DNA from: a virus
Taxonomy: Duplodnaviria; Caudoviricetes
Direction: 5' to 3' (one strand)
IMG/VR virus record: IMGVR_UViG_3300025654_000042
Coordinates: 1-27,048 of that record
DNA length: 27,048 bases
How positions within the stretch are numbered: position 1 is the first letter of the stretch; each line of letters starts with the position of its first letter. Both the position numbers and the translations under genes were made by a program. Below the pieces are notes generated by a model. It searched no databases, was not told where the DNA came from, and saw nothing but the letters and a program-made list of their open reading frames with translations. Of the stretch, positions 20,654 to 24,971 are shown one piece after another.

Positions 20654-22867
20654 CTATTGCATTATTTTTGAGGTGGTTCCTTTATTGTCGTATTTCTTAA
20701 ACCCTAAGGAGTATTTCTTTGTTGTTATAGCTCCCTTGGGACTATATCTATGTTTGTTGCATGCCATTAGTGCTAAGCCGGAGCTTATTGATGCATCATG
20801 CTTTGTCCTGTTGTTTATATCAAACTTGGCCCAGTCTTCTAATGTTCTTTGTAAATAAACATCACCGTACCCTTCTTTTGTTTGACCAACAAAGTCTTCT
20901 ATATAAGTTTCAATTGCCGAAGCGTGTGCTTGTTTAATATCTTCACTTGAGTTAGGTATACCACCTACTTCTCGTTCTGACACAGATAGCTTGTTGTAAG
21001 ATCTATCTGGTCTATTAATACTGAAGCCTCTGTATCCTCGACGCTTTAAATAGTAAAGCAATCTAGGTTTGTTATTTTCACATAATATTGGCATTCCGTA
21101 AAACACCATAGCCATCAGCACGTCTTCAAAAAACATTTCAGCGGTTGATGGTCTAGCTATATATTCTAAAAAGAAATGATTAGGGGGTGCGTCTTCCATT
21201 GAAAACTTAGTTAATCCATGAAGCGCTCCGTTAGAACCTCCACCACCAACAACACCACTAATATCGTAACTGTCACAACCAAAAGCTCCAATATGTTCGT
21301 TTCCAGGGTACTTGATACCATTCTTTATTATTATGTTATTTTGTTGTTCTTGATTAGGAACCCAAGTAATCCAAAATCTACCGTCTTTGTTTGGGTAGAA
21401 CATTACTCTTGTATCTTTAATACCGTTTTCCCATTGAAAGTTTCCCTTCGTAACCATTGTATTGTTTTTTAACTCGTCGTTATAATCTATCTGTTGGTAG
21501 ATCTTAGTCAAGTTAAATAACGATTGCTTAGACTCATCTCTAAAAGCATGTTGCTCTGTTCTTGGAAATTGACGATAGTATTCGTTCAATGCATCAGGAT
21601 CGTCTTTTAATCCTTCAACTTCATTTTCCCAATGATCAATGACGCCCTCATCAATAATGTCACCTTGAGGACCAAGAATGTCTTTCTTAGGTACGTCAAA
21701 AACCGGCCAACCGTGTTCATCAATGAATCCTTCATAGTTCCACTCCATTGGTATAAAAAGCTTATACAATCCGCTTTTTGTTTGCCCATTCTTATTTCTT
21801 TTTGTAACGTCTGAATCGTTATATAATTTTTTAAAGTTTTTACCTCCCTTGTCTAATGCATTTGAGGTTGAGCCCATCATACACTTACCGATAATGCGAC
21901 TACCTAATCTTAAACAAGTTTTTGTAACTCGCCAGTTGTTAAGTATGTTAGTAGGCCTTTCCCACTTACCGCTTTCGTCGTGTACTAATAGCTTTAGTTT
22001 TTCTCCATCGTAAGAGTTGTCCCCGGTGTTTTTCCAGTCGATCGTTGTGTCGAGACCTGTAATTTCCTGGAGTTTCTCGTTTGAATCGAGTTTCCTCCTT
22101 GTAAGCTTTGAGGCTGGTACTCTGTACGCAAGCTCTGTTTTCGGGCGGTCCATTCCGTCCTGTATTGGTTTAAAGAAGAATGGATAGTTAACCGATATCG
22201 GAACAACTTTGTCTGTAAACATCTTCTTTGCATCGGGTCCAGACTTGGACAATATGCCAAATCTAGCATCCGTAGATATTGTGCCTTGGTTAACGGTCTC
22301 TCCTGAGGCCATGAAAGAAAAGCCCGATCTTCTGTTCTTAAGGTAGCACATGCCATAGCTTCGTCTGTCTGCTTTGCAAGCTTCCCAAAAAAGATAGAAC
22401 AATCTGTTTGATTCTCTAAAGTCTGGGTGCCCAACGTCAATCTTGGACCACTGCAGGTACATGTAATGAGTACCAGTAATATAAGTAGGCTTGTCTTTGT
22501 TAATAAACCAAAAACCTTCTTCGCGCCTGTTAAACTCTGTGTCAATATATCCATACCACTTCTCTTTAAATGCAGTCGGATACTTTTCCCAATCCGCTTC
22601 GCTTTTGATTTTACTTAATTCTTTTGGGTATTCTTTTGGCGCCCACTTATTAATTCCCTTACTGAGTTTATCCTCTAGCAAAGGTAATGCAATATGTAAA
22701 TCACCAATAACATATATATCTCCTATCTTACCTGTTCTACTTATTACAACAAGATCGTATTCTTTGTCGTAACCATACTCCCATTTAGCGTAGCGATTCT
22801 TTTTCTTAATTGCTTGCGGCTTAACGTAGTCTTTGGCTATCCGGTATAATTCCTGTTGATATGCCAT
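20654..22867 (-). CDS. terL: Terminase large subunit (737 aa)
   Basis: Walker A-like YLKNRRSGFS, Walker B LLVHDESGKW, coupling motif MMGSTSN, YYRQFP..EQHAF, and an RNase H-like nuclease with FGCDSYD, LCENNK and HDASISSGLALMA. Adjacent to the portal. Confidence 0.92.
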   Translation of the reverse strand: MAYQQELYRIAKDYVKPQAIKKKNRYAKWEYGYDKEYDLVVISRTGKIGDIYVIGDLHIALPLLEDKLSKGINKWAPKEYPKELSKIKSEADWEKYPTAFKEKWYGYIDTEFNRREEGFWFINKDKPTYITGTHYMYLQWSKIDVGHPDFRESNRLFYLFWEACKADRRSYGMCYLKNRRSGFSFMASGETVNQGTISTDARFGILSKSGPDAKKMFTDKVVPISVNYPFFFKPIQDGMDRPKTELAYRVPASKLTRRKLDSNEKLQEITGLDTTIDWKNTGDNSYDGEKLKLLVHDESGKWERPTNILNNWRVTKTCLRLGSRIIGKCMMGSTSNALDKGGKNFKKLYNDSDVTKRNKNGQTKSGLYKLFIPMEWNYEGFIDEHGWPVFDVPKKDILGPQGDIIDEGVIDHWENEVEGLKDDPDALNEYYRQFPRTEQHAFRDESKQSLFNLTKIYQQIDYNDELKNNTMVTKGNFQWENGIKDTRVMFYPNKDGRFWITWVPNQEQQNNIIIKNGIKYPGNEHIGAFGCDSYDISGVVGGGGSNGALHGLTKFSMEDAPPNHFFLEYIARPSTAEMFFEDVLMAMVFYGMPILCENNKPRLLYYLKRRGYRGFSINRPDRSYNKLSVSEREVGGIPNSSEDIKQAHASAIETYIEDFVGQTKEGYGDVYLQRTLEDWAKFDINNRTKHDASISSGLALMACNKHRYSPKGAITTKKYSLGFKKYDNKGTTSKIMQ
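21994..22554 (-). CDS. Candidate overprinted lipoprotein/membrane-anchored protein in +1 frame of terL (186 aa)
   Basis: 561-nt nested ORF with ATG, basic n-region (KK..K), hydrophobic SLLILLVLIT, then C32-T-C34-SG. terL synonymous codons across this span avoid +1-frame stops. A is present at -6 and -11 to -13 of the start. Confidence 0.55.
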   Translation of the reverse strand: MDILTQSLTGAKKVFGLLTKTSLLILLVLITCTCSGPRLTLGTQTLENQTDCSIFFGKLAKQTDEAMACATLRTEDRAFLSWPQERPLTKAQYLRMLDLAYCPSLDPMQRRCLQTKLFRYRLTIHSSLNQYRTEWTARKQSLRTEYQPQSLQGGNSIQTRNSRKLQVSTQRSTGKTPGTTLTMEKN

Positions 22868-23139
22868 TATTTAGATCTCGATTCTGCAAACCCTTTAAAA
22901 GCAGGTTTAGTTGAAGCACTTGACGATTCGTTTATCATACTTTCCTCCTCCTGAATTCTTGTAAGAATTTCAAAGGCGTCAAATATACATAACTTTTTAG
23001 TAGCGGCAGCATTTTTAAGTCTGTCAGCTGAGATATCCTCTTCTGAGTCAACGATCTTTTCTTTTGCTACCTTTACTAATTCTTCAATCGCTAGTCGCCC
23101 AGCGGCTATTATATTCTTCTTCGTTTCTATCGAGTCCAT
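22867..23139 (-). CDS. Probable terminase small subunit (90 aa)
   Basis: Small helical protein directly upstream of terL and coupled to it by a TAATG stop/start overlap. Ends FKGFAESRSK. Function is inferred from position. Confidence 0.5.
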   Translation of the reverse strand: MDSIETKKNIIAAGRLAIEELVKVAKEKIVDSEEDISADRLKNAAATKKLCIFDAFEILTRIQEEESMINESSSASTKPAFKGFAESRSK

Positions 23140-23689
23140 ACTTTATAACAATATCATTTGATTTCATACAATACATAATCTGATTGTCTACAACAAATTC
23201 CCATTCGCTATTTGGTGTGAACCCAACTATGTCTCCTGGATTGATTCCAGACTCCTCTAAGGAGCTATTACCTATTTTAAGTATACCAATAAGATCAGCT
23301 ACTTTATCTGTGCTTAAAAGGTCTTTATTCTTGACAGGCGCAACAAAGCATCTATCTCCGAATGATTTCCAAGTATTTTTTCTTTTATACAAATACACTT
23401 GATCAACCGCACAAAAAAATAAGTCGTCTTTTAAGAAAGACCTACTGTTCTTTTTGATTCCTTTCATGTCGTAAAATACCCTGAACACATTGTGGTGTAC
23501 CATAATTAAATCACCTTTTCTTATAGGAGTTGCAAATGCAACTGGTGTTTCAACTACCTCAGCAATATTGTTAACATGCTTAAAGCTTTCTATAGAGCTA
23601 TTTGTTATAAGGGTATGCTCTCCAACCTTTACCTCGTTATCATACCTTTTGCCTACCGGCTTTATGATAAAGTCATATACACTCCGCAT
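23084..23689 (-). CDS. GroES-like co-chaperonin with two tandem domains (201 aa)
   Basis: Two GroES-like repeats: DFIIKP...IAEVVETP...IRKGDLIMV and DRCFVAPV...GILKIGN...GINPGDIVGF...EFVVDNQIMYCMKSNDI. Confidence 0.65.
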   Translation of the reverse strand: MRSVYDFIIKPVGKRYDNEVKVGEHTLITNSSIESFKHVNNIAEVVETPVAFATPIRKGDLIMVHHNVFRVFYDMKGIKKNSRSFLKDDLFFCAVDQVYLYKRKNTWKSFGDRCFVAPVKNKDLLSTDKVADLIGILKIGNSSLEESGINPGDIVGFTPNSEWEFVVDNQIMYCMKSNDIVIKYGLDRNEEEYNSRWATSD

Positions 23690-24626: not shown

Positions 24627-24971
24627 TTAGTATAATCGTGTTAAAGCGTAAGTTCCGCGAACGTCGCCTGTGTATTTTGTAGAAATTGAATCCCTGGTTA
24701 TAAGTGTGTATTCTATTGTTACTCTGTACCCGTTGTCTGGGTTATGTAGCTTTGTTATAAAACTTGTTACTCCCTCATCAAATATTTCTTCGGTTATAAC
24801 ATCGTATTCTTCAAAAGAGGTATTAAAACATTGTAGTACCGCGTAATCTGACGCAAGTATTGTTTTTAAGTAATTGCTTCCTTCAGTTTTCCATATCCCG
24901 TTAAATGCTTCTTGAGCTGTTAATGTTAATGACGTTAAAACTAAACATAGTGTAATAAATAAATTTTTCAT
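24627..24971 (-). CDS. Secreted/periplasmic small beta protein with Sec signal peptide (114 aa)
   Basis: MKNLFITLCLVLTSLTLTA|QEAFNGIWK is an SPase I signal with Gln at +1. The GxW motif and alternating beta strands suggest a lipocalin-like barrel. Confidence 0.7.
   Translation of the reverse strand: MKNLFITLCLVLTSLTLTAQEAFNGIWKTEGSNYLKTILASDYAVLQCFNTSFEEYDVITEEIFDEGVTSFITKLHNPDNGYRVTIEYTLITRDSISTKYTGDVRGTYALTRLY

Follow-up and report, generated by a model that had tools for sequence, protein, structure and literature searches.

A gene with a lipoprotein-like leader overprinted on terL of a marine phage

The nested reading frame in terL

The DNA analysed here, a 27-kb virus record (IMGVR_UViG_3300025654_000042; 27,048 nucleotides, referred to as the window), carries a minus-strand head and packaging module with a GroES-like gene, a gene for a protein of 90 amino acids, the terminase large subunit gene terL, the portal gene and structural genes. 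Nested in the +1 frame of terL (20654..22867, minus strand; 737 amino acids; phrog_6681, E 7e-160) lies the subject of this work, an ATG-started open reading frame (ORF) of 186 amino acids at 21994..22554 on the same strand (terL codons 105-291). TerL is 32-63% identical to annotated terminases from Elemovirus, Pachyviridae, Pervagoviridae and MW202828. As its matches were to Elemovirus (43%), the Cellulophaga phages phi13:2 (38%) and phi38:1 (35%), Tenacibaculum phage Gundel (32%) and MW202828 (63%), the host is probably a flavobacterium.

The nested ORF had been proposed in an earlier note made from the sequence alone, and its coordinates and frame were confirmed. As described there, it covers the terL motif KNRRSGFS (22316..22339, minus strand), which we take to be Walker A, and stops just before LLVHDESG (21968..21991, minus strand), presumably Walker B. 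The claim of exceptional off-frame length also held, as the stop-free stretch around the ORF runs to 206 codons and the longest of all other +1 and +2 stretches, across 20 examined genes of the window, to 81. Shuffling synonymous codons reached this length in 2 of 20,000 trials within the gene, and in 0 of 20,000 with window codon usage. Recounting the terL Ile, Leu and Val codons gave the same figures as before (those preceding a purine end in T or C in 15/15 cases, those preceding a pyrimidine end in A in 5/11), the run of T-ending codons CCT ACT TAT ATT ACT GGT ACT CAT was present, and GC content was raised in the ORF span (0.43, against 0.367 in the rest of terL).

The nested ORF gave no Pfam or PHROG match at E 0.1, and the best value in an atlas search with it (0.79) was at chance level. 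Thirty-two database "homologues" were rejected as independent evidence, since gene callers had produced them from this very part of terL. The nested region is covered by contigs from four RNA runs, which shows presence in RNA libraries only.

The window was then compared with 80 related terL loci (65-90% identity), with expected stops computed from each genome's own codon usage over a test region of terL codons 110-245. In 53 of these 81 homologues the +1 frame had no stop in the region (open), in 3 it had one (always at codon 226), and in 25 it had 3-9 (broken); only 0.05 zero-stop sequences would be expected. The open sequences contained 0 stops versus 271 expected, and the other 28 contained 155 versus 169.5. 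Outside the region observed and expected stops agreed in both groups (1290/1322 open, 752/733 rest). A larger non-redundant set (n = 174), drawn in part from scans that targeted one broken and one divergent clade, held 86 open sequences; of the others, 12 had one or two stops and 76 had at least three. Within open frames, terL codons of the form NTA occurred at 0/399 positions before a purine and 280/467 before a pyrimidine. No other frame, antisense included, was open in the homologues, which rules out an antisense ORF as the explanation.

The frame is broken in about one third of homologues, and was not open in 5/5 annotated relatives checked (32-63% TerL identity). Open and broken states changed 11 times on the TerL tree, at least 8 of these changes being forced; the root was not inferred. 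Because of these forced changes and the lack of the frame in the five annotated relatives, the simplest reading is an old overprint lost many times, to which recombination may have added changes. The same observations make the earlier wording, that the nested gene is "genetically locked" to the packaging motor, too strong.

Synonymous divergence gave a divided answer. It was lowered in the window's clade (0.24-0.31 versus 0.44-0.48), and in a second comparison of that clade (0.13-0.18 versus 0.24-0.36), which is biased as its loci were picked by the ORF. Family-wide there was no such drop: close pairs gave 0.29 inside versus 0.33 outside in open relatives and 0.33 versus 0.34 in broken ones, and across all open pairs divergence in the tail was higher than in broken relatives. 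The locus shows three features found in overprinted genes, namely length beyond chance, selection on the second frame and a narrower distribution than that of terL, and we regard it as virtually certain that the nested frame is a real overprinted gene under selection.

Leader, candidate lipidation site and tail

The ORF begins with a predicted leader (residues 1-31; 22462..22554, minus strand), which has a Lys-containing n-region and a hydrophobic core and is modelled as a helix by AlphaFold2. An ATG at terL codons 104-110 with no later stop was found in 45/54 open or one-stop sequences versus 4/24 broken ones (after removal of two duplicates and a partial row), and the start position hops among codons 105, 109 and 110. 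The core LLILLVLI (residues 23-30; 22465..22488, minus strand) is encoded across the T-ending terL codons.

Each terL third position serves as the second position of a nested codon. At four-fold degenerate terL codons the frequency of third-position T in the leader was 0.81 in open versus 0.49 in broken relatives, and in the tail 0.26 versus 0.50; outside the region it was 0.46 and 0.45. The tail bias was shown by 50/51 open versus 5/24 broken sequences, and 8/8 hand-picked near pairs agreed. Selection therefore pushes the leader toward Leu, Ile and Val and the tail away from them, which is more than stop avoidance, as that alone would give the opposite pattern. This also accounts for the GC rise in the nested region (0.405 inside versus 0.34 outside in open sequences, 0.345 versus 0.339 in broken ones).

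The predicted mature part (residues 35-186; 21997..22452, minus strand) is polar, basic (isoelectric point, pI, of 10) and predicted to be disordered, with no transmembrane segment; a search for a second hydrophobic segment found none, the best 15-residue hydropathy after residue 40 being 0.45. In the AlphaFold2 model, which is of low confidence overall (pLDDT 40), the sole helix spans residues 2-34 and pLDDT is below 50 beyond it. The stop of the ORF varies among relatives from terL codon 226 to 325, and three genomes stop at codon 192 with the leader retained and the tail bias ending at that stop; predicted products range from 87 to 220 amino acids. The tail is selected for polarity, with its exact sequence only weakly held.

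Directly behind the leader lies a candidate lipidation site, Cys32-Thr33-Cys34 (22453..22461, minus strand). Its Cys32 is forced by terL, and Thr33 and Cys34 are selected: Cys34 was present in 42/51 open versus 4/24 broken sequences and Thr33 in 46/51 versus 9/25. The six Cys residues noted earlier (32, 34, 52, 69, 102 and 112) were counted correctly, but Cys32, 69 and 112 were rejected as evidence, since they are forced by the terL sequence ATG-T and are equally frequent in broken relatives. In a divergent clade, which lends lipidation its best support, the hydrophobic run has moved about 12 codons further upstream (13/13 loci), where it ends in IGSC (10) or TGSC (3), and the old leader position has turned polar. 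In 9/9 sequences examined an ATG puts the Cys of this [IT]GSC at residue 32. That Cys is partly forced by terL, being present also in broken MW202828; the preceding Ser and the hydrophobic run are chosen. The lipobox consensus is given as [LVI][ASTVI][GAS]C in passages of a spanin survey (PMC6139136), and against it the Ser at -1 fits and the Gly at -2 falls outside the strict form. With the basic n-region and hydrophobic h-region of a lipoprotein-type leader present, the nested product is likely a lipoprotein.

A free lipoprotein of the endolysin region and the spanin question

LP488 is a family of free lipoproteins (115-161 amino acids) found in the endolysin region of related marine phages. 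When all families were compared after six-frame clustering, it was the most depleted in genomes with an open nested frame (0/10 open versus 8/11 broken). Genomes picked only for LP488 had a broken frame in 10/10 cases, and then in 7/9 with a readable terL (one partial); the two exceptions with the nested ORF, G137 and G131, are sisters in which LP488 is divergent and the nested ORF is shorter. The final table of 64 genomes, in which LP488-positive records were kept at any completeness and LP488-negative ones at >=70% (lower ones dropped), held 29 with the nested gene only, 27 with the free gene only, 6 with neither and 2 with both (Fisher 4e-10). Correction for the tree, which contained a seven-row deep clade that was all broken, left 8 supported independent pairs, of which on average 5.3 went the same way, 0 the opposite way and 2.7 showed no difference (median p 0.06).

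LP488 directly follows an M15 endolysin gene in 6/11 loci printed, 3 of them with a GTA-type holin-like gene after it (two were scanned, with Pfam E values of 0.0015 and 0.05, short of the cut-off). Its matches were to hypothetical viral clusters only, and its AlphaFold2 model was of low confidence (pLDDT 50). A scan blind to family found a free canonical lipoprotein in 9/10 broken versus 1/14 open near-complete genomes (p 7e-5); its thresholds were set after three earlier scans, and 7/9 finds were LP488. The 366-amino-acid find in G095 may be a signal peptidase I substrate, and the length filter drops a 58-amino-acid candidate in the open genome G115. In G117, which is complete and broken, a different lipoprotein and spanin-like genes surround the endolysin: two spanin-like gene pairs flank an M15-like endolysin (L644:17438-19463), one of an 86-amino-acid protein with a transmembrane segment and coil plus a 120-amino-acid lipoprotein, the other of a 111-amino-acid protein of the same layout plus a 155-amino-acid exported protein. 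Because of the near-exclusion between the nested gene and a free lipoprotein of the endolysin region, a lysis-linked role of the nested product in the envelope gains support.

The two proteins are alike in layout and composition only, each having a leader and Cys, a polar, basic tail rich in Ser, Thr, Pro and Asn (pI about 10) and a mostly low-confidence model, together with their near-complementary distribution. LP488 differs in its canonical lipobox, a conserved beta-hairpin motif and a segment rich in Tyr and Trp.

We also considered X94, a gene for a protein with a transmembrane segment and coiled coil, a layout like that of the inner-membrane spanin subunit (i-spanin), which matched an Rz-like spanin PHROG weakly (E 0.13). 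LP488 lies directly upstream of X94 in 7/8 genomes, overlapping the X94 start by about 31 nucleotides. As an obligate partner of the nested gene X94 was rejected: the first 6/6 X94 matches lay in open genomes, but later 19/30 did, which is the base rate (53/81). In L092:9861-12774 and many relatives X94 is part of a cassette with genes for a signal-peptide protein of about 400 amino acids, an exported thioredoxin-fold protein (Pfam E 5e-7) and the M15 endolysin; the window's clade lacks this conserved envelope cassette. One broken clade that has no LP488 (L480:4430-5530, L481:3952-5049) has a cassette protein of about 366 amino acids that starts with a lipobox-like LVAC or IIAC leader, unlike its relatives. 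Annotated relatives have spanin-like genes near the endolysin by layout, without a family match.

The nearest near-complete relative of the window, G112 (97% ORF identity, 91% complete), carries an M15 endolysin (E 1e-20), a GTA-type holin (E 2e-5) and a 53-amino-acid holin-like gene, and scanning it turned up neither X94 nor LP488 nor any further candidate i-spanin. G112, G113 and G114 all lack X94 and its cassette yet retain the nested ORF.

The nested protein is not a member of the embedded outer-membrane spanin (o-spanin), unimolecular spanin (u-spanin) or disruptin classes by the features tested. Its host gene is terL and not an i-spanin gene, and it does not co-occur with X94; it has no C-terminal transmembrane segment; and it is no short cationic amphipathic helix, having 186 amino acids, a leader and, in a low-confidence model, no helix after residue 34. 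Among superinfection-exclusion lipoproteins of the Llp and Cor type, no similarity to known families was found in the Pfam and PHROG searches at E 0.1. The earlier suggestion of a hidden envelope protein is supported in part, as to a real, selected gene with a lipoprotein-like leader, and a link to lysis gains support. The locking is too strong a claim, and a classical o-spanin is not supported, given the host gene, the freely varying C-terminus and the lack of an i-spanin candidate in the nearest near-complete kin.

Possible function, related systems and neighbouring features

A role of some form at the lysis stage is probable, whether without a partner or as an o-spanin. The account we tentatively favour, at somewhat less than even chances, is that the nested product is a lipoprotein which is exported, carries a long disordered tail of polar character and helps break the outer membrane at lysis, replacing the free lipoprotein. 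The nested gene would have been born by overprinting on terL, because terL is older and more widely spread. Its product would be translated from the late packaging mRNA, lipidated at Cys32 or Cys34, transferred to the outer membrane, and would act there at lysis in place of the free lipoprotein encoded near the endolysin. Most speculatively, after removal of the wall by the M15 endolysin the tail may extend to the inner membrane as a flexible basic tether, and it would work without a dedicated i-spanin in the window's clade. A bolder version, which we consider doubtful, is that this is a partner-free outer-membrane lysis lipoprotein born de novo in the terminase ATPase domain, a lipid-anchored disordered tether that forms a class of its own beside two-component spanins, u-spanins and disruptins, and that in an abundant family of marine Bacteroidota phages it is repeatedly exchanged for free lipoproteins unrelated to it. 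If so, many "spanin-less" phages would hide an outer-membrane gene inside essential structural genes.

Several observations weigh against an outer-membrane lysis lipoprotein exchanged with LP488. The exclusion is imperfect, with both genes in 2/64 genomes (G137 and G131) and neither in 6/64, and the 8 supported pairs leave a median p of 0.06; X94 or LP488 had served to select the genomes, most of which are not complete. In G003, which is near-complete and broken, our scans found no lipoprotein. The nested protein has no sequence similarity to LP488 (E 24) and lacks both the canonical lipobox and the invariant motif VLAVTxEGDT of that family, whose own lysis role is putative and read from gene position. 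Basic charge was rejected as a selected trait of the tail, since broken relatives have the same Lys and Arg content as a by-product of the frame. No i-spanin candidate was found by scanning G112, G113 and G114. The lipobox, described as near-canonical in the earlier note, is so in the shifted clade ([IT]GSC) but not in the window's own clade, where LITC and TCTC place Thr at -1 of both Cys, outside the consensus. Signal peptidase I sites (T-C-S|G, C-N-G|Q, S-C-A|T) fit the sequence as well.

This last point bears on an unlikely alternative, that the product is exported without lipidation, either cut by signal peptidase I and released into the periplasm or held as an inner-membrane signal anchor, with an accessory role in the envelope. 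The Thr before both Cys residues in the main clade, the terL-forced Cys32 and the fitting small-x-small sites agree with it, as do I-T-C at positions 31/33/34 in 14/86 open sequences and the company of Gln37 in 12/15 sequences with Asn35. Excerpts of a study of Bacteroidetes (PMC5837995) state that Gln usually follows signal peptidase I cleavage there, and that the +2 rule for lipoprotein sorting does not hold. Gln after the alternative site was not selected in our set overall (18/51 open versus 8/25 broken), with Pro37 common, and both the [IT]GSC at residue 32 in the shifted clade and the canonical lipoprotein nature of LP488, the seemingly replaced gene, speak for lipidation. A true o-spanin with a distant i-spanin partner, X94 or an unrecognised inner-membrane protein, is likewise improbable. 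The position of LP488 just upstream of X94, with their overlap, the i-spanin-like layout and weak Rz-like match of X94 and the many open genomes that carry X94 without a free lipoprotein would suit it, and distant pairs would have been missed in the spanin survey, to judge from parts of its text (PMC6139136). Yet X94 does not track the nested gene, and the ORF is retained in the three relatives that lack X94 and its cassette. The C-terminus, the site of interaction of lambda spanins according to the same excerpts, ends anywhere from terL codon 192 to 325.

Lipoproteins such as T5 Llp and Cor block receptors, and a product that prevents superinfection or masks the receptor against inactivation of progeny by debris, without being a lysis factor, seems rather improbable here. 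Such a gene could well be dispensable and repeatedly lost, as this one is; the lysis genes proper are present with or without it, and late expression would suit protection of progeny. A receptor blocker needs a specific binding surface, however, and the tail is selected for polarity, not sequence, and is predicted to be disordered; moreover, the exchangeable free gene adjoins the endolysin. A programmed +1 frameshift giving a fusion to the TerL N-terminus, with no separate protein, has very little to commend it. The run GGT TTT TGG at terL codons 118-120 could permit re-pairing but is equally present in broken relatives, 53/54 open sequences have an independent ATG, which moves when a stop arises at codon 108, and the leader sits at the start of the frame. 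It is hardly credible that there is no second gene and that chance, GC content or a constraint on RNA or DNA excludes the stops. Synonymous divergence that is not lowered family-wide, the lack of a Pfam or PHROG match and a G at -3, unlike most window starts, are what one would cite for this, but stop avoidance is specific to context and frame, bimodal across genomes and coupled to the start, leader and tail signals, and the tail bias stops where three genomes stop early (codon 192).

Among known systems, lambda Rz1 in Rz and T7 18.7 in 18.5 resemble the nested gene in their out-of-frame nesting, lipoprotein-type leader and predicted unstructured mature part, as described in portions of the spanin survey (PMC6139136), and a probable outer-membrane role may be common to them. 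The nested gene differs in its host, a terminase ATPase, in its product of 87-220 amino acids with a free C-terminus and a non-canonical lipobox, and in having no partner found in the window's clade and no sequence similarity. That 2018 survey reports no spanin in about 13% of phages and notes lipoproteins without a nearby partner (PMC6139136). T7 19.2 and 19.3, both annotated in the +1 frame within the gene for the large terminase subunit, provide a precedent for such nesting in terL; they encode 85 and 57 amino acids, are annotated as hypothetical, show no comparable leader-plus-Cys layout by eye and belong to an unrelated phage family. In phiX174, third-position T of gene D likewise becomes second-position T of the overlapping gene E and builds a Leu-rich membrane segment, and E inhibits wall synthesis from the inner membrane, according to PMC8227390. 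Unlike E, the nested product combines a leader and a Cys site with a long polar tail, and the phage that encodes it also has an endolysin. The phiKT disruptin gp28 is a cationic protein that disrupts the outer membrane independently of spanins, as stated in part of a preprint (10.1101/515445); gp28 is a 56-residue amphipathic helix, whereas in the nested protein an export leader precedes a disordered tail and the charge is not selected.

Our literature search, judged from listings and with limited coverage of subscription papers, found no paper describing this nested gene. The present case is well supported as the overprinting of a long gene on an essential enzyme of double-stranded DNA phages, in the domain of it that is most conserved, and codon choice allows gains of function to be read, from the leader, start hopping and leader relocation to tail length and decay. 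A terL-hidden lipoprotein exchanged with one of the lysis region gives a direct place to look in phages without a recognised spanin. As terL is a standard phage marker, it also matters that codon statistics are skewed here over about 200 codons.

Further downstream in terL, at 21607-21789 (minus strand; codons ~341-400), lies a second +1 stretch, with 81 stop-free codons in the window and a 60-amino-acid ATG-started ORF. At codons 341-382 there were 23 stops versus 53.8 expected in open and 7 versus 27.9 in broken relatives, and in four cultured relatives no +1 stretch is longer than the one at the matching place. This may reflect a small second ORF or some other constraint; the signal is weak, since the expectation is no more than about one stop in each sequence.

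Small, very basic ORFs, rich in Lys and Arg and containing Cys, occur in runs around the lysis genes of many relatives (L087:3321-5773, L128, L188 and others). G001 (L086, L089) and G139 have duplicated gene runs and two terL matches, perhaps from assembly overlap or two strains. In the window itself, a 114-amino-acid protein encoded at 24627-24971 (minus strand), without a Pfam or PHROG match, has a signal peptide ending before Gln and is retained in G112, G113 and G114. The GroES-like gene (23084-23689, minus strand; 201 amino acids; phrog_13932, E 1.5e-22) lies directly upstream of the 90-amino-acid gene and terL, and cultured relatives have a GroES-like gene at the same place.

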